Of a stretch of 15,728 nt of DNA, positions 831 to 12,594 are shown one piece after another. The position numbers and the translations under genes are program-made. The notes below the pieces were generated by a model. That model saw only the letters and a list, made by a program, of their open reading frames with translations, had not been told where the DNA came from and made no database searches. The DNA comes from a virus. Taxonomy: Duplodnaviria > Heunggongvirae > Uroviricota > Caudoviricetes. Each line of letters starts with the position of its first letter. The stretch's first letter is position 1. The DNA lies in the IMG/VR virus record IMGVR_UViG_2740892229_000020; one strand, written 5' to 3'.

Positions 831-1376
831 TCATATTGCCCCCAGCATGGTGGTCACCATCGCCATTAATGGACCAGCCAAATCCGGGTCCACACGAAAC
901 ATCGACACAATGCCTTCACTCATCTCCTTCAGTTTCTGGTGGCGTGGTGCGTTGAGAATGACAGCCTGTTTTGCCTCACTGAGTTCCTTTTCCATTTCAG
1001 CCAGCCGAGCCATGAAGCTATCCTGCTCAACCAGGTGGCCGCGATATTTCAGCGGTAGTACTGCCAGAATTGCTGGAGTCAGTTCACGCACGTTATTTCG
1101 GTATTTTTCAGAATCGAATTTGTTATCGAGAAAGCGGAACAGCTTCTGGCGTGCACGACTGACATCATCAGGAAAATCGATAGTGCCGCCGCCCTGTGCT
1201 CGATACTCATTCACAATGAGTGCGGCAACGACATCCTGATTATCTACAGCCGACCAGGCGCGGATGGCATCACGGATTTTTTCGTGGCCTGGCACCTGTT
1301 TTATTTGAGAACGATTTATCACCGCAGTCGGGATAAATCCGCTAGTCTGTTGGTATGTAAGTGGTTGCATAGTCAT
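831..1376 (-). CDS. cII-position regulator, YdaT-family-like protein (181 aa)
   Basis: Complete ORF between the cro-like gene and the O-like gene on the same strand. The product has a QGGG motif and a TPAILAVLPLKYR segment that I recall from YdaT-type proteins of Rac-like immunity regions; family call is from memory. An alternative start two codons in (ATG at 1368-1370) has better Shine-Dalgarno spacing. Confidence 0.55.
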   Translation of the reverse strand: MTMQPLTYQQTSGFIPTAVINRSQIKQVPGHEKIRDAIRAWSAVDNQDVVAALIVNEYRAQGGGTIDFPDDVSRARQKLFRFLDNKFDSEKYRNNVRELTPAILAVLPLKYRGHLVEQDSFMARLAEMEKELSEAKQAVILNAPRHQKLKEMSEGIVSMFRVDPDLAGPLMAMVTTMLGAI

Positions 1377-1400: not shown

Positions 1401-1628
1401 TTAGGCGGCAGAATTACTCGCGTTAAACAATGGTGCGAGGTCGGGACGAATATCTGCTGGTTTAATCTTTCCACCAGTGGCTGAGACAATTTTCATTACA
1501 TAGCGGGCATCAATTCCGCCACCGTGTAGCCAACGCCAAACAGTGGGTTGGGCTACACCGCATAGATCTGCCAGTCGTTTTTGACTACCTGTAATACTGA
1601 TTGCGAGTTGAATGGTTTGATTTGTCAT
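1401..1628 (-). CDS. Cro-like HTH regulator (YdaS/Cro family), ~75 aa
   Basis: Small HTH protein (…QKRLADLCGVAQPTVWRWLHGGG… ATGGKIKPADIRPDL) divergent from the repressor gene. The ORF track starts at a TTG (1634); the ATG at 1626-1628 is preceded by an AGGA Shine-Dalgarno with 7-nt spacing, so I place the start there. Confidence 0.75.
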   Translation of the reverse strand: MTNQTIQLAISITGSQKRLADLCGVAQPTVWRWLHGGGIDARYVMKIVSATGGKIKPADIRPDLAPLFNASNSAA

Positions 1629-1738
1629 TATCAATTCCTATTGGTATTGCAATGAATGAATAATAGCAATGCGTATTAATCCAAGCAATAGCAAAACATG
1701 TTTTGACCATCAATACGCAAGCGTATAAATTAAAACTT
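1629..1738. promoter_or_regulatory. OR-like divergent promoter/operator region between cro-like and CI-like genes
   Basis: About 110 bp of AT-rich intergenic sequence between divergent regulator genes. Contains the palindrome ATTGCAAT (1644-1651), repeated AATAGCAA(T) motifs (1662-1670, 1687-1694) and a plus-strand TTGACC (1704-1709) … TATAAA (1724-1729) pair with a short 14-bp spacer, just upstream of the repressor start. Promoter assignments are tentative. Confidence 0.45.
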
Positions 1739-2431
1739 ATGAAAAAAGAAACTCTTGCTGATCGCTTAAACCTAGCGATGGAACAATCTGGAATGTCTCA
1801 AGGCGCTCTTGCAAAGGCGTCTGGCGTAGCTCAACCCACAATCTGGAGACTGACAAGCGGCAACGCGCGCGGCTCAACAAAAATTGTTGAAATAGCTAAT
1901 GCATTGGGTGTTCGAACAGAATGGCTCTCATCAGGCATAGGCCCGATGAGAAATGACGGTCAACAATCAGGGAAGCCTGCTGTCAGCCATTCCAAATACT
2001 TCAAAATTGACGTTCTTGATATAGAAGTCAGTGCCGGGCCGGGTGTAATCAACCGTGAGTTTGTAGAAGTTCTACGCTCGGTTGAGTACTCGTTTGACGA
2101 TGCTCGTCACATGTTCGATGGCAGGAAGGCGGAAAATATCCGCATCATTAACGTGCGTGGTGACAGCATGTCAGGAACGATCGAACCAGGTGATCTGCTG
2201 TTCGTTGATATCACGGTTAAATCTTTCGACGGTGATGGTATCTATGCGTTTCTGTACGACGACACAGCCCATGTAAAGCGCCTGCAAATGATGAAAGATA
2301 AGCTACTGGTTATCTCTGATAACAAGAGCTACTCACCGTGGGACCCGATCGAGAAAGACGAGATGAACCGGGTGTTCATCTTCGGTAAGGTTATTGGGAG
2401 CATGCCGCAGACGTACAGGAAGCATGGTTAA
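1703..2431 (+). CDS. CI-type prophage repressor (N-terminal HTH, C-terminal LexA-like S24 peptidase domain)
   Basis: HTH segment MSQGALAKASGVAQPTIWRL; Ala-Gly autocleavage-like site (EVSAGPG); catalytic Ser in RGDSMSGTIEPGD and Lys in AHVKRL. Divergent from the cro-like gene. An alternative start at ATG 1739 (MKKETLADRL…) is possible; neither start has a strong Shine-Dalgarno, which would fit a leaderless transcript as for lambda cI. Confidence 0.85.
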   Translation: MTINTQAYKLKLMKKETLADRLNLAMEQSGMSQGALAKASGVAQPTIWRLTSGNARGSTKIVEIANALGVRTEWLSSGIGPMRNDGQQSGKPAVSHSKYFKIDVLDIEVSAGPGVINREFVEVLRSVEYSFDDARHMFDGRKAENIRIINVRGDSMSGTIEPGDLLFVDITVKSFDGDGIYAFLYDDTAHVKRLQMMKDKLLVISDNKSYSPWDPIEKDEMNRVFIFGKVIGSMPQTYRKHG

Positions 2432-2512
2432 TAATTAGCCTGTAGCTTTTTAAGGCACACTCTTTTCAAGAATATTAAATAGAACGCTATATGGCATAAA
2501 CAAGGACTTAGG

Positions 2513-2986
2513 ATGGAAAAGCCTAGCTTCCCACCTCTTCTTACAGCAGGATTTCATGATATGGATAGTGATGGCATCAAGTCTCTTTGTGTCGACACCT
2601 TCCCAAAATCCGTTAGAAGAAGTATGCTATACTGTAATTTTATACAGCTTATTGAGCAATTTAAACTTGTTAATCAGCAGTGTCTATGTTTCTCTGAAGT
2701 GTGGATCGATGGTTCATTCACTACAGAGAAACCTGAACCTGATGACATAGATATACTCGTGGTCGTCGATTATTTGGCCCTAAACTCTTTGCCAAACACG
2801 CTGATGCCATTGGTTAGCTCATTGTTAAATAGAGATTTTATTAAAGAAAACTACAGCATTGACGTTCTTTTGCTGCCTGAAAATCATCCAGAAATCGATT
2901 ATAGTGAAAGGCGAAGTTACTGGAGAGGGTGGTTTGGTTTTGATCGGAAGGAGAATCCTAAAGGCCTCGTGAGGGTAATGTTATGA
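2513..2986 (+). CDS. Small predicted nucleotidyltransferase-fold protein (157 aa), first gene of an AT-rich two-gene module at the rexAB-equivalent position
   Basis: Complete ORF with a Shine-Dalgarno-like AAGGA upstream. Contains a GS-x10-DxD motif (WIDGSFTTEKPEPDDIDILVVVD) characteristic of Pol-beta-type/minimal nucleotidyltransferases. Noticeably AT-rich compared with flanking phage genes. The fold call is from motif inspection only. Confidence 0.6.
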   Translation: MEKPSFPPLLTAGFHDMDSDGIKSLCVDTFPKSVRRSMLYCNFIQLIEQFKLVNQQCLCFSEVWIDGSFTTEKPEPDDIDILVVVDYLALNSLPNTLMPLVSSLLNRDFIKENYSIDVLLLPENHPEIDYSERRSYWRGWFGFDRKENPKGLVRVML

Positions 2987-3915
2987 GCGAAGAAAAAACA
3001 TTCAACTCCCTCAAGGAGCGAATTGCGTTCATTCAACGCGATGTGGATCTGCTTGCTCAAAATAAGGGGAGATCATTTGCTGATGACATTATATTTAGAT
3101 CACTTGACTCCCATCTGAGCGATCTCCGAGAGAGACAACGTGCAATCGATAACCAACATCCTTTACGTGATTTCATGGAGTTGAGATTAAAAGGTGTTTT
3201 GGTCGATTTCGGGTCTATTCCGTTAGATATTCTATCTGTAATTTCAGGTAATCTCGCATCCCTTGTACAGAAAGCAGTTTACCGACTTGGATCTGGGAAA
3301 GATTCTAGTCGTGTGCCGATTGATGTTAAAAAATCATTAGACATGAGATTGGCAGACTTGCGTCCAGGTTCGACGAAGTTAGGTGTTACTTTTTCTACTG
3401 GTTCTTGCGAGCTCATCGAAACAGTATCCAGTCATGCTGTTAAGGAGATTTTTGCACTACTCTCATCCATTGATGAAGAAACATTCACGGCTAAAATTGC
3501 CGAAATTGGTTCGCAATCAACAGCTAACCTAAAAAACATCATAAATGAGTGCGAAAAATATAGTCTTAACTTTGATCTTACTTGGATTGGACCTTTAAGT
3601 GATGGTACCAGACAAGTGTCAATTTCTTCAGAAGATATAAAAAAACTGAATGCTCGCTTAGCTTTAACGAAGGTCATTCAGCTACCGGATGAGCATATAT
3701 CAGGCGAACTTGCTATTTTATCCATGTACGGGAAATTGGAGATTGCAAGCGAGCTTGGAAAAATAAAGGCTTCTTATCCGATTGATATGTTAGGAGAAAT
3801 TCAAAGTAAATATAAAGTTGGTGAACGAATATCGCTCGTAGTAAGCGTTTCTGAGATTCACAATGAAAGATTAGGAACATCACGACGTAACTACATGGTT
3901 AAAAAAATCGAATAG
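2983..3915 (+). CDS. Hypothetical protein (310 aa), second gene of the two-gene module; function unknown
   Basis: Start ATG overlaps the stop of the upstream gene (ATGA at 2983-2986), with GAGGG 9 nt upstream, indicating translational coupling. AT-rich. Followed by a strong intrinsic terminator. No catalytic motif recognised; contains RSLDSH (an Rx4H pattern) that is not diagnostic on its own. Confidence 0.7.
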   Translation: MSEEKTFNSLKERIAFIQRDVDLLAQNKGRSFADDIIFRSLDSHLSDLRERQRAIDNQHPLRDFMELRLKGVLVDFGSIPLDILSVISGNLASLVQKAVYRLGSGKDSSRVPIDVKKSLDMRLADLRPGSTKLGVTFSTGSCELIETVSSHAVKEIFALLSSIDEETFTAKIAEIGSQSTANLKNIINECEKYSLNFDLTWIGPLSDGTRQVSISSEDIKKLNARLALTKVIQLPDEHISGELAILSMYGKLEIASELGKIKASYPIDMLGEIQSKYKVGERISLVVSVSEIHNERLGTSRRNYMVKKIE

Positions 3916-3923
3916 TGATGCTA

Positions 3924-3950
3924 CCCGGCCACCGTGCCGGGTTTTCTTTT
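3924..3950 (+). terminator. Rho-independent terminator closing the CI / two-gene operon
   Basis: 6-bp GC stem CCCGGC (3924-3929) / GCCGGG (3936-3941), loop CACCGT, followed by TTTTCTTTT (3942-3950). Confidence 0.65.
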
Positions 3951-4077
3951 GCCTCCCCCTCATCACACAAACCGTTCGAAAAACCACCATAACCCCCGCT
4001 TCAGTTATCGCTATGCGATGCAAGTCACAAAATTAATTCTTTTTGCTATCAAACATTTAATATCAAAACACATCAGC

Positions 4078-4130
4078 CAATAGCGATAAGTATTGATATC
4101 ACCAATAGCAATAGCTATTATCACCATATC
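4078..4130 (+). promoter_or_regulatory. pL-like early-left promoter with candidate operator repeats
   Basis: TTGATA (4093-4098), 17-bp spacer, TATTAT (4116-4121) on the plus strand. Overlapped by a direct repeat of TATCACC (4097-4103, 4119-4125), AATAGC repeats (4079-4084, 4104-4109, 4110-4115) and the palindrome AATAGCTATT (4110-4119). The AATAGC motif is shared with the OR-like region. Confidence 0.45.
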
Positions 4131-4194
4131 GCAACAACACAACGATACGGCAACCACCTGATTCACCGTTGCGATGACCGCTTAGATCCGCAGC

Positions 4195-4434
4195 TTGAAT
4201 TTCAGCAGGCTCCGGGGAGTGCGAGGGGTGAAGCGGACGCGTGAACGTCGGTGTGACCAGCTGAAATCAACTCAACACTTCATACCTCAGTCGCTTCAAC
4301 GAGGCGACTTAGTTATGACAACCGGCGGCCATCCACCGCCTGAATACGCGCAGAAGTCTCAATATGTTCAGCAGCCCAGCTTACGGGCAGGAGTTTTTTA
4401 TGGTTCATCAACATTACGGAACGCAGACCGTTAA
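4195..4434 (+). CDS. Possible small arginine-rich protein (79 aa); weak candidate for an N-like factor, uncertain
   Basis: ORF begins just downstream of the pL-like promoter with an Arg-rich N-terminus (RLRGVRGVKRTRERR). No convincing Shine-Dalgarno; overlaps the next ORF by 35 nt. Not similar to lambda N as far as I can recall. Confidence 0.2.
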   Translation: MNFSRLRGVRGVKRTRERRCDQLKSTQHFIPQSLQRGDLVMTTGGHPPPEYAQKSQYVQQPSLRAGVFYGSSTLRNADR

Positions 4435-4606
4435 TCGAGGTGCGGTCATGCCAGGAATGCTGGTCAAACACAAAGATGGTACCTGGACTGCATCAGCTAA
4501 TTTACGCGGACGGCTTTATCTGCATCGCGGCATCGAGCGCACTTATACCCGTGATTTGCTCGTAGAAGTTTTTCTCGACGGACGCGGTAACGGCCTGAAT
4601 CACTAA
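4400..4606 (+). CDS. Hypothetical protein (68 aa) occupying the kil position immediately upstream of gam in this segment
   Basis: ATG at 4400 is preceded by AGGAG (4389-4393) with 6-nt spacing. Stop at 4604-4606 falls exactly where homology to the kil-gam junction of the other copy (5516-5518) begins. Confidence 0.45.
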
Positions 4607-4681
4607 TCCCCTTTCCTGTTTTCCTAATCAGCCTGGCATTTCGCGGGCGATATTTTCACAGCCATTTTCAGGAGTTCAGCC

Positions 4682-4882
4682 ATGAACGCTTATTACATTC
4701 AGGATCGTCTTGAGGCTCAGAGCTGGGCACGTCACTACCAGCAGATCGCCCGTGAAGAGAAAGAGGCAGAACTGGCAGACGACATGGAAAAAGGCCTGCC
4801 CCAGCACCTGTTTGAATCGCTATGCATCGATCATTTGCAACGCCACGGGGCCAGCAAAAAAGCCATTACCCGTGCGTTTGAT
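4682..4882 (+). CDS. gam: Gam (host RecBCD inhibitor), 5' portion, truncated by the N run at 4883
   Basis: [67 protein letters not shown]… matches lambda Gam. A second allele of the same sequence, differing by a few synonymous substitutions, is at 5594..5890. Confidence 0.8.
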
Positions 4883-4892
4883 NNNNNNNNNN
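4883..4892. other. Run of 10 N (assembly gap or masked junction)
   Basis: Exactly 10 ambiguous bases; the following 104 bp (4893-4996) are a near-copy of 5007-5110. Confidence 0.95.
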
Positions 4893-4996
4893 AAGCGACT
4901 TAAATGCATATGGTGTTGTGTGTGAGTTCGACTGGAATGATGGAAATGGTCAGGAAGGATGGCCTCCAATGGATGGTAGCGAAGGAATAAGAATTA

Positions 4997-5006
4997 NNNN
5001 NNNNNN
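4997..5006. other. Run of 10 N (assembly gap or masked junction)
   Basis: Exactly 10 ambiguous bases between two near-identical copies of the same coding fragment. Confidence 0.95.
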
Positions 5007-5169: not shown

Positions 5170-5241
5170 GCGCGGCGTTACCGCATACCAATAACGCTTC
5201 ACTCGAGGCGTTTTTCGTTATGTATAAATAAGGAGCACACC

Positions 5242-5406
5242 ATGCAATATGCCATTGCAGGGTGGCCTGTTGCTGGCTGCCCTTCCGAATCTTTACTTGA
5301 ACGAATCACCCGTAAATTACGTGACGGATGGAAACGCCTTATCGACATACTTAATCAGCCAGGAGTCCCGAAAAATGGATCAAACAATTATGGCTATCCA
5401 GACTAA
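5242..5406 (+). CDS. cIII: CIII (protects CII by inhibiting FtsH), 54 aa
   Basis: AGGAG 7 nt upstream of ATG 5242; translation [54 protein letters not shown], near-identical to lambda CIII as I recall it. Shorter than the ORF-track cutoff, so it is not in the track. Confidence 0.85.
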   Translation: MQYAIAGWPVAGCPSESLLERITRKLRDGWKRLIDILNQPGVPKNGSNNYGYPD

Positions 5407-5593: not shown

Positions 5594-5890
5594 ATGAACG
5601 CTTATTACATTCAGGATCGTCTTGAGGCTCAGAGCTGGGCACGTCACTACCAGCAGATCGCCCGTGAAGAGAAAGAGGCAGAACTGGCAGACGACATGGA
5701 AAAAGGTCTTCCACAGCACCTGTTTGAATCACTCTGCATCGATCATTTGCAACGCCACGGGGCCAGCAAAAAAGCCATTACCCGTGCGTTTGATGACGAT
5801 GTTGAGTTTCAGGAGCGCATGGCAGAACACATCCGGTACATGGTTGAAACCATTGCTCACCACCAGGTTGATATTGATTCAGAGGTATAA
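5594..5890 (+). CDS. gam: Gam (RecBCD inhibitor), 98-aa short form
   Basis: Complete ORF whose translation matches lambda Gam; sits directly upstream of bet. Confidence 0.9.
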
Positions 5891-5895
5891 AACGG

Positions 5896-6501
5896 ATGAG
5901 TACAGCACTAGCAACGCTGGCAGGGAAGCTGGCTGAACGTGTCGGCATGGATTCTGTCGACCCACAGGAACTGATCACCACTCTTCGCCAGACGGCATTT
6001 AAAGGTGATGCCAGCGATGCGCAGTTCATCGCATTACTGATCGTTGCCAACCAGTACGGCCTTAATCCGTGGACGAAAGAAATTTACGCCTTTCCTGATA
6101 AGCAGAATGGCATCGTTCCGGTGGTGGGCGTTGATGGCTGGTCCCGCATCATCAATGAAAACCAGCAGTTTGATGGCATGGACTTTGAGCAGGACAATGA
6201 ATCCTGTACATGCCGGATTTACCGCAAGGACCGTAATCATCCGATCTGCGTTACCGAGTGGATGGATGAATGCCGTCGCGAACCATTCAAAACCCGCGAA
6301 GGCAGAGAAATTACGGGGCCGTGGCAGTCGCATCCCAAACGGATGTTACGGCATAAAGCCATGATTCAGTGTGCCCGTCTGGCCTTCGGATTTGCGGGTA
6401 TCTATGACAAGGATGAAGCCGAGCGCATTGTCGAAAATACCGCATACACTGCAGAACGTCAGCCGGAACGCGACATCACTCCGGTTAACGATGAAACCAT
6501 G
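5896..6501 (+). CDS. bet: Bet (Red-beta single-strand annealing protein), copy 1, 3'-truncated by the N run at 6502
   Basis: MSTALATLAGKLAERVGMDSVDPQELITTLRQTAFKGDASDAQFIALLIVANQYGLNPWTKEIYAFPDKQNG… matches lambda Bet. The frame continues to the N run. Confidence 0.85.
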
Positions 6502-6511
6502 NNNNNNNNNN
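6502..6511. other. Run of 10 N (assembly gap or masked junction)
   Basis: Sequence after the run restarts inside the gam 3' end and repeats bet with substitutions. Confidence 0.95.
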
Positions 6512-6512
6512 A

Positions 6513-6587
6513 CGCATGGCAGAACACATCCGGTACATGGTTGAAACTATTGCCCGCCACCAGGTTGATATTGATTCAGAGGTATAA
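6513..6587 (+). CDS. gam: Gam 3'-terminal fragment (second allele; redundant with 5816-5890)
   Basis: Frame [24 protein letters not shown] ending at TAA 6585-6587; differs from copy 1 (ETIAHHQ) by substitution. Confidence 0.5.
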   Translation, partial: RMAEHIRYMVETIARHQVDIDSEV

Positions 6588-6592
6588 AACGG

Positions 6593-7291
6593 ATGAGTAC
6601 AGCACTCGCAACGCTGGCAGGGAAGCTGGCTGAACGTGTCGGCATGGATTCTGTCGACCCACAGGAACTGATCACCACTCTTCGCCAGACAGCATTTAAA
6701 GGCGATGCCAGCGATGCGCAGTTCATCGCATTGCTGATCGTCGCCAACCAATACGGCCTTAATCCGTGGACGAAAGAAATTTACGCCTTCCCTGATAAGC
6801 AGAACGGCATCGTTCCGGTGGTGGGCGTTGATGGCTGGTCCCGCATCATCAACGAAAACCAGCAGTTTGACGGCATGGACTTTGAACAGGACAACGAATC
6901 CTGCACATGCCGGATTTACCGCAAAGACCGCAATCATCCGATCTGCGTTACCGAGTGGATGGATGAATGCCGCCGCGAACCATTCAAAACCCGCGAAGGC
7001 AGAGAAATCACCGGACCGTGGCAGTCGCATCCCAAACGGATGTTACGGCATAAAGCCATGATTCAGTGTGCCCGTCTGGCCTTCGGATTTGCTGGTATCT
7101 ATGACAAGGATGAAGCCGAGCGCATTGTCGAAAATACCGCATACACCGCAGAACGTCAGCCGGAACGCGACATTACTCCGGTTAACGATGAAACCATGCA
7201 GGAGATTAACACTCTGCTGATTGCCCTGGACAAAACATGGGATGACGACTTATTGCCGCTCTGTTCCCAGATATTTCGCCGCGACATTCGC
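6593..7291 (+). CDS. bet: Bet (Red-beta), copy 2, truncated near its 3' end by the N run at 7292
   Basis: Same protein as copy 1 with scattered synonymous differences; extends 93 bp further than copy 1 before the N run. Confidence 0.85.
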
Positions 7292-7301
7292 NNNNNNNNN
7301 N
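7292..7301. other. Run of 10 N (assembly gap or masked junction)
   Basis: The 93 bp after the run (7302-7394) repeat the 93 bp before it (7199-7291) with a few substitutions. Confidence 0.95.
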
Positions 7302-7481
7302 CAGGAGATTAACACTCTGCTGATCGCCCTGGATAAAACATGGGATGACGACTTATTGCCGCTCTGTTCCCAGATATTTCGCCGCGACATTCGCGCATCG
7401 TCAGAACTGACACAGGCCGAAGCAGTGAAAGCTCTTGGATTCCTGAAACAGAAAGCCACTGAGCAGAAGGTGGCAGCATGA
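7302..7481 (+). CDS. bet: Bet 3'-terminal fragment (continues into exo)
   Basis: In-frame [59 protein letters not shown] ending at TGA 7479-7481, which overlaps the exo ATG at 7478 (ATGA). Confidence 0.75.
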
Positions 7482-8316: not shown

Positions 8317-8866
8317 TTTCACCGGAAGCAATACTCCTGCCGAACATCGCGACAGCTGGCGCACACCACCAGAGATTTTTGCTGCGCTTAATGCAGAGTT
8401 CGTTTTTCAACTTGATGCTGCCGCCAGCGAAAAAAACCGACTATGTCGGCTTTTTATCTCACAGGAGCAGAACACATTAACCACTTCATGGCCTGAAGCA
8501 ATGGGATATGCCTCTGGTTATGTCTGGTTGAATCCACCATACAGCAATATTTCCCCTTTTGTGAAAAAGGCAGCCACTGAAAACAAATTCAGTAGTGTGG
8601 GATGTGTAATGTTATTGCCTGCTGACACATCTGTCGGATGGTTTCATGAAGCGATACAAACCGCCAGTGAGGTCAGATTCATCACGGCAGGACGACTGGC
8701 ATTTATTAACCCACTCACTGAGAAACCCGTCAGTGGAAATAATAAAGGCTCGATGCTCATTATCTGGCACCCATACCCCCGTACACACTGCCACTTTACG
8801 ACCGTTGATCGTGGAGAGTTGATGGCGTTCGGCTCAAGGATTCTTGCCCGTCGGGAGGCTGCATGA
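8309..8866 (+). CDS. Phage-type DNA N6-adenine methyltransferase (Dam family), 185 aa
   Basis: Catalytic NPPY motif (YVWLNPPYSN). Size and overall sequence character fit the small phage Dam N6-A methyltransferase family. Start overlaps the upstream ORF. Confidence 0.75.
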   Translation: MTDFTGSNTPAEHRDSWRTPPEIFAALNAEFVFQLDAAASEKNRLCRLFISQEQNTLTTSWPEAMGYASGYVWLNPPYSNISPFVKKAATENKFSSVGCVMLLPADTSVGWFHEAIQTASEVRFITAGRLAFINPLTEKPVSGNNKGSMLIIWHPYPRTHCHFTTVDRGELMAFGSRILARREAA

Positions 8867-8942
8867 CAACCACGGAATGCATTTTTCTGGCAGCGGGCTT
8901 CATATTCTGTGTGCTTATGCTTGCCGACATGGGACTTGTTCA

Positions 8943-9158
8943 ATGACACCTCAGCAGGAAAACGCCCTTCGCAGCATTGCCCGTCAGGCTAATTCTGAAA
9001 TCAAAAAAGCCAGACAGCAGTTTCCGGATAAAAACGTCGATGACATTTGCCGTAGCGTACTAAAGAAGCACCGCGAAACGGTAACGCTGATGGGATTCAC
9101 ACCGACTCATTTAAGCCTGGCGATCGGCATGTTAAACGGCGTCTTTAAGGAACGGTGA
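8943..9158 (+). CDS. Hypothetical early-left protein, 71 aa (lambda orf61 region)
   Basis: MTPQQENALRSIARQANSEIKKARQQFPDKNVDDICRSVLKKHRETVTLMGFTPTHLSLAIGMLNGVFKER; present identically in both cassette variants (second copy inside 9716..10027). An N-terminal extension from an upstream start (TTG 8844) is possible. Confidence 0.55.
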   Translation: MTPQQENALRSIARQANSEIKKARQQFPDKNVDDICRSVLKKHRETVTLMGFTPTHLSLAIGMLNGVFKER

Positions 9159-9265: not shown

Positions 9266-9275
9266 NNNNNNNNNN
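9266..9275. other. Run of 10 N (assembly gap or masked junction)
   Basis: Sequence before the run ends at …TGGAAGATGGCAGAC, which recurs at 10118-10135; sequence after the run restarts inside the exo 3' end. Confidence 0.95.
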
Positions 9276-9571: not shown

Positions 9572-9735
9572 GAACGAGTATCGAGATGGCACATAGCCTC
9601 GCTCAAATTGGAGTCAGGTTTGTGCCAATACCAGTAGAAACAGACGAAGAATTTCATACGTTAGCCGCATCCCTTTCACAAAAGCTGGAAATGATGGTGG
9701 CGAAAGCAGAAGCAGATGAGAGAGACCAGGTATGA
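9544..9735 (+). CDS. Lambda orf63-like protein, 63 aa
   Basis: 63-codon ORF overlapping the orf60a 3' end and overlapped by the next ORF by 20 nt, which is the arrangement I recall for orf63/orf61 in lambda. Confidence 0.65.
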   Translation: MHKASPVELRTSIEMAHSLAQIGVRFVPIPVETDEEFHTLAASLSQKLEMMVAKAEADERDQV

Positions 9736-10027
9736 CAACCACGGAATGCATTTTTCTGGCAGCGGGCTTCATATTTTGTGTGCTTATGCTTGCCGACATG
9801 GGACTTGTTCAATGACACCTCAGCAAGAAAACGCCCTTCGCAGCATTGCCCGTCTGGCTAACTCTGAAATCAAAAAAGCCAGACAGCAGTTTCCGGATAA
9901 AAACGTCGATGACATTTGCCGTAGCGTACTAAAGAAGCACCGCGAAACGGTAACGCTGATGGGATTCACACCGACTCATTTAAGTCTGGCGATCGGCATG
10001 TTAAACGGCGTCTTTAAGGAGCGATGA
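9716..10027 (+). CDS. Hypothetical early-left protein (lambda orf61 region), 103 aa from ATG 9716; shares its C-terminal 71 aa with 8943..9158
   Basis: ATG 9716 lies 20 nt before the orf63 stop. An alternative shorter start is MTPQQ at 9812, which has a GGGA Shine-Dalgarno-like element. Confidence 0.55.
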   Translation: MRETRYDNHGMHFSGSGLHILCAYACRHGTCSMTPQQENALRSIARLANSEIKKARQQFPDKNVDDICRSVLKKHRETVTLMGFTPTHLSLAIGMLNGVFKER

Positions 10028-11783: not shown

Positions 11784-11793
11784 NNNNNNNNNN
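11784..11793. other. Run of 10 N (assembly gap or masked junction)
   Basis: Interrupts an ORF that begins at ATG 11761 (MHTAFEF…) and resumes in-frame sequence after the run. Confidence 0.95.
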
Positions 11794-11991: not shown

Positions 11992-12594
11992 TCATTCAGT
12001 ATCATCACGCGCGGTCTGTGCATATGTCACTACCGCACCTAATATATTAATTTTCTTTTCAACATAGATAATATTATCGTACTCATAATTGCCATACGGA
12101 TAGCAAATGCGAATATTCTCATGTAGTTCGGGGTCATCCACCTCAGCTCCAGAACAACTTTTTGAACTACCGGAAGTATACCGATACGGTGCAACATAAG
12201 ACGATGTCTCTCCAGGCAAAAAATAAGTTAGTGTCGTAAGGGGTATAATCAGAAAAAATCCAGCAAATATGCACATCCCTGCATAAACCTTAAGGTATGC
12301 TGACAGACTCTTCCAGCCTCTTTGTTTTACTATCCCCTTCTTAACCCAAAACAGAGATAACAGAAAAGCTATTCCCATGCTAAACAGAATGTAATAGTGG
12401 GATATACTCTGATTAAGAAACGTGACCCTGTAGATATCTGCCCGCCACCAGAAGAAAAGGAAAATAAAGATCAGCCCTGAAACTGTCATGCAAATCAAAT
12501 AAGGATACGAATCTTTTTTCATGTTTAGCGCCCATAAAATTTTTCCTGACCCGGACAAATTTACCATCCATTTTTTGCGCAGAAAATAGCTCAT
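11992..12594 (-). CDS. Predicted integral membrane protein (about 3 TM helices plus a C-terminal soluble domain), AT-rich reverse-oriented accessory gene
   Basis: Minus-strand ORF of 200 aa (176 aa if the start is the internal Met at 12520-12522). Hydrophobic segments YLICMTVSGLIFIFLFFWW, YYILFSMGIAFLLSLFWV and VYAGMCIFAGFFLIIPLTTLTYFL. Opposite orientation to all surrounding phage genes and markedly AT-rich. Confidence 0.6.
   Translation of the reverse strand: MSYFLRKKWMVNLSGSGKILWALNMKKDSYPYLICMTVSGLIFIFLFFWWRADIYRVTFLNQSISHYYILFSMGIAFLLSLFWVKKGIVKQRGWKSLSAYLKVYAGMCIFAGFFLIIPLTTLTYFLPGETSSYVAPYRYTSGSSKSCSGAEVDDPELHENIRICYPYGNYEYDNIIYVEKKINILGAVVTYAQTARDDTE

Follow-up and report, generated by a model that had tools for sequence, protein, structure and literature searches.

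A repressor-adjacent gene pair of a lambda-like Escherichia coli prophage, encoding a predicted minimal nucleotidyltransferase and a putative OB-fold partner, is an instance of the candidate defence system PDC-M63

Temperate phages keep lysogen-expressed protective genes at the side of their repressor gene, and the best known case, rexAB, has been studied for decades: in lambda, cI, rexA and rexB lie between the operators OR and OL in a block closed by a terminator, and rexAB fills a slot for lysogen-expressed exclusion. Small nucleotidyltransferases (NTases) are in turn found in several modules of two genes. MntA modifies its partner HepT, while in Hailong (HalB/HalA) and Clover (CloB/CloA) a nucleotide or oligo-DNA ligand made by the NTase keeps the partner inactive, HalB making an oligo-dA that closes HalA and CloB making an inhibitor of CloA. 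Here we describe the gene pair that occupies the rexAB-equivalent slot in a lambda-like E. coli prophage, the virus record IMGVR_UViG_2740892229_000020, of which a stretch of 15,728 nt (hereafter, the window) was analysed. The first gene, ORF1, encodes a protein of 157 aa and the second, ORF2, a protein of 310 aa; their families are called A and B below.

Identity of the pair and predicted features of its proteins

Both proteins match the profiles of one catalogued system. In PADLOC-DB, residues 1-156 of ORF1 aligned with positions 1-148 of the 152 in the PDC-M63A profile (PDLC04744, E = 7.4e-43), and ORF2 matched PDC-M63B (PDLC04749, E = 4e-42) plus five further B models; in PHROGs the two proteins correspond to 9194 and 6603. 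The pair belongs to PDC-M63, a candidate system of PADLOC, and agrees with it on every point that can be tested. A first-pass annotation of the window had concluded that the pair fitted no system that could be identified, which these matches overturn; its proposal of a novel defence or addiction module survives as regards candidate status and falls as regards novelty, the prediction being that of Payne et al. The PDC systems are 145 untested candidates collected through ‘guilt by embedding’ in BREX, DISARM, type I restriction-modification and Hma loci, and among them PDC-M63 is a computational candidate to which neither a mechanism nor a description of the B domain was assigned (Payne et al. 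2024, bioRxiv 10.1101/2024.01.29.577857). The searchable literature returned no paper on DUF6932, the Pfam family to which ORF1 belongs, and no characterisation of PhiR30 or of repressor-adjacent NTase/OB systems. Besides Payne et al., a single searchable paper mentions PDC-M63, namely the one with the deletion experiment discussed below (PMC12409345). The pair is thus catalogued as a defence candidate and functionally uncharacterised, and it had been found as a candidate before.

Sequence and structure prediction both indicate that ORF1 is a catalytically intact minimal Pol-beta NTase with a GS...DxD...D active site. It scored 92.5 bits against Pfam DUF6932 (PF22014; gathering score 27) and gave sub-threshold matches to Polbeta and DNA_pol_B_palm. 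In an alignment of 42 homologues, with identities down to 35%, residues G67, S68, D78 and D80 were invariant. The GS-DxD motif had been recognised at first sight with a spacing of ten residues; the motif holds, the actual spacing is nine, and D117 supplies a third acidic position. Across the same alignment the family also showed invariant residues of its own (R36, W64, K73, P76, W137, R145, K150 and G151) and its own RSYWRGWFGFDR motif. The NTase fold proposed for this protein was recovered as an alpha/beta model of high confidence (predicted local distance difference test, pLDDT, 96), the nearest structural neighbours of which include MNT antitoxins, and sequence and profile searches of the PDB gave no match. 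As to the start codon, a Shine-Dalgarno sequence (AAGGA) lies 7 nt upstream of position 2513 and residues 1-16 are conserved in homologues, with G13 invariant; because both support a start at 2513, the 141-aa annotation found in some records is probably wrong.

The partner is of a different kind. The ORF2 model comprises a helical hairpin at residues 10-56, a poorly modelled middle and, at the C-terminus, an OB fold in the form of a barrel of five strands, the third and fourth of which are separated by a helix. This barrel resembles those of SSB, PriB, RuvA and RPA, and a Foldseek search of the PDB returned OB folds only, with weak E-values (≥0.014). ORF2 may accordingly be described, at the level of fold, as a putative partner of nucleic-acid-binding type. 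An exhaustive profile search collected 278 clusters at 50% identity, nearly all of 300-330 aa and free of domain fusions. Among 127 diverse homologues Ser130, at the end of a segment (residues 114-130) with pLDDT below 50, was the sole invariant residue; the near-invariant sites hold glycine, tryptophan and, in one case, an acidic residue, and a conserved set of catalytic residues was not seen. Because only Ser130 is invariant across so diverse a family, ORF2 does not look like an enzyme, nor does its sequence resemble a HEPN domain or a pore.

Specific identities proposed for ORF2 were examined in turn. A HEPN reading was rejected, as R39 and H44 vary freely in the family and the model, with its strands, is not purely helical; the RSLDSH stretch, regarded from the outset as non-diagnostic, is indeed not conserved in the family. 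ORF2 had no HEPN match in Pfam, and one of 31 homologues gave a weak match to HEPN_Toprim_N (E = 0.016). A membrane effector resembling RexB or HalA was rejected for want of hydrophobic segments: neither ORF1 nor ORF2 contains a predicted transmembrane segment, the maximum 19-residue hydropathy being 1.26 and 1.54, respectively. No credible match to ORF2 was found in Pfam (searched with ORF2 itself and with 31 family members individually), in NCBIfam or, by sequence and profile searches, in the PDB. The best PDB match, to a WXG-like stretch of EsxA (E = 0.07), was judged fortuitous, since the family does not conserve the G of ‘WxG’. Separately, residues 62-148 of ORF2 (3166-3426) gave weak PADLOC matches to the N-terminus of PDC-M32A in three sub-models (E ~0.005-0.01), so that the two may share a domain.

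Conservation, genomic contexts and layout of the immunity region

To what extent the two genes belong together was assessed in ~150 loci from viral contigs, species-representative genomes and metagenomes, spanning several phyla and anchored separately on A or on B. Results showed that B lies directly downstream of A in every A locus, mostly with the 4-nt overlap, and that A accompanies every B with the exception of one contig end. The pairing of A and B is obligate and far beyond chance. It is kept down to ~25-30% identity and holds in Pseudoalteromonas (B 30% identical), Bermanella, Thioalkalivibrio and Psychroserpens (Bacteroidota). The idea that the genes would be conserved as a unit, usually beside repressor genes, is borne out on both counts: a co-oriented repressor of the S24/HTH or HTH-only type stands directly upstream of the pair in 59 of the 78 non-redundant contexts. 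These repressors represent many different alleles, and within E. coli the cI gene ahead of an identical module comes in two or more alleles. Of 5426 complete E. coli genomes, 98 carry the module, in each case on the chromosome and with a sequence that is identical or ≥99% identical; phage PhiR30_1 has it too. It is an autonomous accessory cassette, strictly paired, that temperate phages carry and that sits here in a lysogen-expressed slot; it fills the repressor slot behind many repressor alleles in Enterobacterales prophages and moves across several phyla as one block.

Other accessory positions were also found, namely next to an integrase gene, after gpD, with a terminase gene on one side and a KAP NTPase gene on the other, and beside a primase-polymerase gene. 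The pair occurs in non-phage islands as well; the Pseudoalteromonas copy has a mer transposon as its neighbour. Two of the distant loci carry recognisable defence genes. In Psychroserpens burtonensis (locus L015, 1511-3112) genes for a Peptidase_U49 (Lit-like) protein and a DUF6933 protein follow the pair directly, which suggests a small defence cluster in this Bacteroidota genome. In Thioalkalivibrio sp. ALE28 (locus L154, 3138-14358) the pair has AbiEii/AbiEi, YefM/YoeB and a ResIII-DUF3427 protein (helicase/nuclease) as neighbours within 5 kb, and the island also holds a NUDIX gene. A conserved unannotated gene of 241-245 aa stands immediately before A in L154 and in one further locus, L155.

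Disrupted copies were also recorded. In two cattle isolates of E. coli, OkiPb01716 and 13E0767 (loci L151 and L152; locus 3546-4813), an IS3 element sits exactly at the ORF1/ORF2 junction and leaves both ORFs essentially intact and uncoupled; such an insertion should be polar on B while A is still expressed. Degraded copies exist for both genes: A is truncated in P0144 and P0092, and B is frameshifted in locus L038.

We then placed the pair within the immunity region of the window (Table 1). The CAATAGCRA operator-like motif occurs in exact form only at 1686 on the OR side and at 4078 and 4103 on the OL side, and copies with one mismatch cluster alongside, those of the OR side at 1635, 1641 and 1661. 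Because the OR-side and OL-side copies bracket the cI-ORF1-ORF2 block, this block lies inside the immunity region. On the OL side they overlap a pL-like promoter (TTGATA-17-TATTAT, 4093-4121). The terminator that ends the block consists of a 7-bp stem with 6 GC pairs (3923-3942) followed by UUUUCUUUU, with a predicted free energy of -13.9 kcal/mol. In the 81-nt spacer between cI and ORF1 neither a terminator-like nor a promoter-like site was called, and no unusual structure was detected (z = -0.64); a cI transcript of the PRM type is the presumed source of read-through into the module. For cI itself, RefSeq uses the ATG at 1739 (230-aa form) instead of the TTG at 1703, and the former is likely to be the true start. 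Base composition sets the pair apart, with 39-40% GC (ORF1 0.397, ORF2 0.389) vs 47% for cI (0.471) and 49% for the early-left operon (0.494), and with 0.39 and 0.32 at third codon positions in ORF1 and ORF2 vs 0.50 in cI. In these respects the first-pass annotation read the locus correctly: it had placed two genes of the sizes given above, co-oriented with cI, between cI and a terminator in the rexAB slot, and the open reading frames agree, as do the ATGA overlap and the AT-richness that it had pointed out.

Table 1. Positions of the features discussed, in coordinates of the window
Feature	Position	Strand	Basis or remark
YdaT-domain gene	831-1376	-	Pfam; cII position
YdaS/Cro-like gene	1401-1634	-	Pfam; cro position
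OR-side operator-like repeats, CAATAGCRA family	1635-1694		Pattern search; between cro-like gene and cI
cI-type repressor gene	1703-2431	+	Pfam Peptidase_S24 (1.5e-18), HTH_3 (1.5e-6)
cI-ORF1 spacer, 81 nt	2432-2512	+	Holds the ORF1 Shine-Dalgarno AAGGA
ORF1 (PDC-M63A), predicted DUF6932 minimal Pol-beta NTase, 157 aa	2513-2986	+	
Predicted NTase active-site motif, G67-S68-x9-D78-I-D80	2711-2752	+	Alignment of 42 homologues
Third acidic residue, D117	2861-2863	+	≥90% conserved, 42 homologues
ATGA stop/start overlap, translational coupling	2983-2986	+	Same 4-nt overlap in most homologous loci
ORF2 (PDC-M63B), predicted soluble partner, 310 aa	2983-3915	+	PADLOC 4e-42; AlphaFold2 pLDDT 67
Ser130 codon, G-S-[TS] loop	3370-3372	+	Invariant in two alignments (31 and 127 diverse homologues)
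OB-fold domain of ORF2, predicted	3667-3909	+	Residues 229-309; beta1-3, helix, beta4-5
Intrinsic terminator, end of cI-ORF1-ORF2 unit	3923-3950	+	Stem and U tract
OL-side operator-like repeats, overlapping pL-like promoter	4078-4121	+	Exact CAATAGCRA at 4078 and 4103
Lambda_thermo, cIII thermoregulator	5229-5287		Rfam, 88.5 bits; start of lambda-type cIII gene
Downstream gene order	After pL-like region		cIII, gam, bet, exo, Dam methylase, xis, int, then ybhC-like host gene

A few further observations concern the rest of the window. The YdaS and YdaT domains bear ‘toxin’ names in Pfam and stand here in the cro and cII positions; a trio of S24 repressor, YdaS and YdaT was seen again beside the module in metagenomic prophages. 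Rfam and tRNA scans revealed no RNA component within or adjoining the module. Near-duplicates of early-left genes, gam and bet among them, flank six runs of exactly ten N (4883-4892, 4997-5006, 6502-6511, 7292-7301, 9266-9275 and 11784-11793); examples are 4682-4903 vs 5594-5890, 5896-6633 vs 6593-7312 and 8844-9158 vs 9716-10027. This arrangement looks like a scaffolding or assembly-bubble artefact, and ORF1 and ORF2 are unaffected by it. Between the ea-type genes and xis/int, an ORF of 200 aa (11992-12594, minus strand; GC 0.39) with hydrophobic stretches had no match in Pfam or PADLOC; it is likely to be a second moron, possibly a membrane exclusion protein.

Proposed function and alternative explanations

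The best overall explanation, to which we assign a probability of roughly one half, is that the pair is a lysogen-expressed PDC-M63 module in which a small NTase controls, or works through, an OB-fold partner. Taken as a separate question, it is somewhat more probable that the two genes are co-transcribed with cI in the lysogen and act on superinfecting phages by exclusion, by abortive infection or in the manner of a toxin-antitoxin module. Besides the repressor slot, what points to defence is the company that the pair keeps elsewhere (Peptidase_U49, AbiEii/AbiEi, YefM/YoeB, ResIII-DUF3427 and KAP NTPase), and the AT-rich module is patchily distributed.

As to mechanism, we tentatively favour a guard model by analogy, with A as the regulator and B as the effector. 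A would constitutively nucleotidylylate B, possibly on the Ser130 loop, or would make an oligonucleotide that is bound by the OB fold of B, and this mark or ligand would hold B inactive. Infection would strip the mark or ligand or halt its renewal, and the freed, oligomeric B would bind single-stranded DNA or RNA and block replication or translation. The guard model is preferred because the small Pol-beta NTases of two-gene immune modules that have been worked out are negative regulators. The gene order and coupling, the MNT-like neighbours of A, the invariant serine in a flexible loop and the OB fold all fit it, and the two E. coli genomes that tolerate IS3 at the A/B junction were counted in favour of A as regulator. 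A more specific version, which we regard as rather doubtful, makes PDC-M63 a soluble analogue of nucleic-acid-gated guards: the NTase would build a chain, possibly primed on Ser130, that is read by the OB fold of the partner, and loss of the chain upon infection would free a non-enzymatic effector with affinity for nucleic acid. If this soluble guard proved true, it would represent a new effector class and a further case of immunity held under an inhibitory nucleotide mark, in the rexAB slot.

Several observations weigh against a lysogen-expressed, NTase-controlled defence module. OB folds bind proteins and sugars too, and the middle third of ORF2 is poorly modelled, with pLDDT below 50 at residues 61-85 and 114-130. 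No recognisable toxic domain was found in ORF2. Co-transcription with cI is read from the anatomy of the genes, and both the modification of Ser130 and an interaction between A and B are hypotheses by analogy. The pair is also found near terminase, tape-measure and primase genes, sites that are not obviously lysogen-expressed, and the IS3 insertions are compatible with simple inactivation. Finally, in the only experiment on record for PDC-M63, deletion of a prophage-borne PDC-M63AB from E. coli NILS69 left the infectivity of ten virulent double-stranded DNA phages unchanged (PMC12409345).

The main alternative is the reverse assignment, in which A would be the effector and B a sensor or adaptor. 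Here the OB fold would present phage or host nucleic acid, and the NTase would extend its 3′-end or else modify a protein; with single-stranded DNA as the presented substrate, or tRNA as in the anticodon-binding domains of aminoacyl-tRNA synthetases, replication or translation would be poisoned. Such a module would amount to a miniature, split version of the NTase toxins of the MenT/AbiEii type. We consider it unlikely: the NTase toxins known so far are DUF1814 proteins of ~290 aa and A has no AbiEii match, whereas the characterised small NTases of two-gene immune modules are regulators and MNT antitoxins are among the nearest structural neighbours of A.

Less probable still is that the pair serves addiction or stabilisation as a toxin-antitoxin module, or some other lysogenic-conversion function, being selfish or otherwise beneficial to the lysogen with no direct anti-phage role. 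The negative outcome of the NILS69 knock-out (PMC12409345) speaks for such a function, and the tightly coupled two-gene architecture, the mobile contexts (the mer transposon neighbourhood and the integrase-adjacent sites) and the degraded copies of A and B are in keeping with it. However, the NILS69 panel of ten virulent phages was narrow, the pair is strongly associated with the repressor slot, where lambda carries its exclusion genes, and with defence-island neighbours, and PDC-M63 was picked as a candidate precisely through its embedding within defence systems. A role in phage DNA metabolism, with an SSB-like OB protein and an NTase acting in replication, recombination or repair, would suit the resemblance of the OB fold to SSB, PriB, RuvA and RPA and the primase-polymerase or helicase genes that adjoin the pair in some distant phages, but is improbable for a module that is AT-rich, lies mostly behind a co-oriented repressor with a terminator separating it from the early operons, is absent from most related lambdoid phages and from all but the 98 E. 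coli genomes mentioned above, and moves among unrelated phage types and non-phage islands.

Comparison with described systems

The pair falls outside HEPN-MNT, AbiE/MenAT, RexAB and Hailong: each of them is defined in part by a feature of the partner that is missing here. With RexA/RexB it has in common the slot between cI and OL/pL, the orientation of cI, the closing terminator, the number of genes and the presumed expression in the lysogen. The likeness is one of genomic position only: there is no homology, and the RexAB models of PADLOC-DB were unmatched. Furthermore, RexB is a polytopic membrane protein, whereas neither protein of the pair has a membrane segment and an NTase is present instead.

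The analogy with HEPN/MNT and AbiE modules that was drawn at the outset holds at the level of the NTase fold and breaks down at the partner, which is neither a HEPN protein nor AbiEi nor a DUF1814 protein. HEPN-MNT modules (MntA/HepT, type VII toxin-antitoxin) share with the pair the order of NTase and then partner, and the coupling of the two genes. In contrast, HEPN proteins are all-helical with an Rx4H (Rx4-6H) motif, while the partner here has 310 aa, beta strands and a predicted OB fold; ORF1 for its part belongs to DUF6932 and has extra N-terminal helices and the RSYWRGWFGFDR motif. AbiE and MenAT are likewise abortive-infection or toxin-antitoxin modules of two genes that contain an NTase. 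In the pair, however, the NTase gene comes first and its product is half as large, the partner is no winged helix-turn-helix antitoxin, and no Pfam or PADLOC match to AbiEii (DUF1814) or AbiEi/COG5340 was obtained.

Hailong and Clover come closest in logic, both consisting of two genes one of which encodes a small Pol-beta NTase. Their partners differ from ORF2, HalA being a transmembrane ion channel and CloA an HD dNTPase, while ORF2 appears soluble and devoid of catalytic motifs. PDB and structure searches with ORF1 gave no sequence match or specific structural match to either system, and what sets the pair apart from Hailong is the lack of a transmembrane segment in ORF2, not a comparison with HalA/HalB profiles. 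By analogy with these systems, an OB-fold partner could plausibly act as the receptor for a ligand made by the NTase. If PDC-M63 is a defence system, it would add to the emerging picture of immune effectors under the control of small nucleotidyltransferases, and its partner, with a helical hairpin, an OB fold and a single invariant serine and with no catalytic or membrane domain, would be an undescribed type of effector or sensor. Overall, a module of an NTase plus a partner is familiar from the systems described so far; the architecture of this partner is not.

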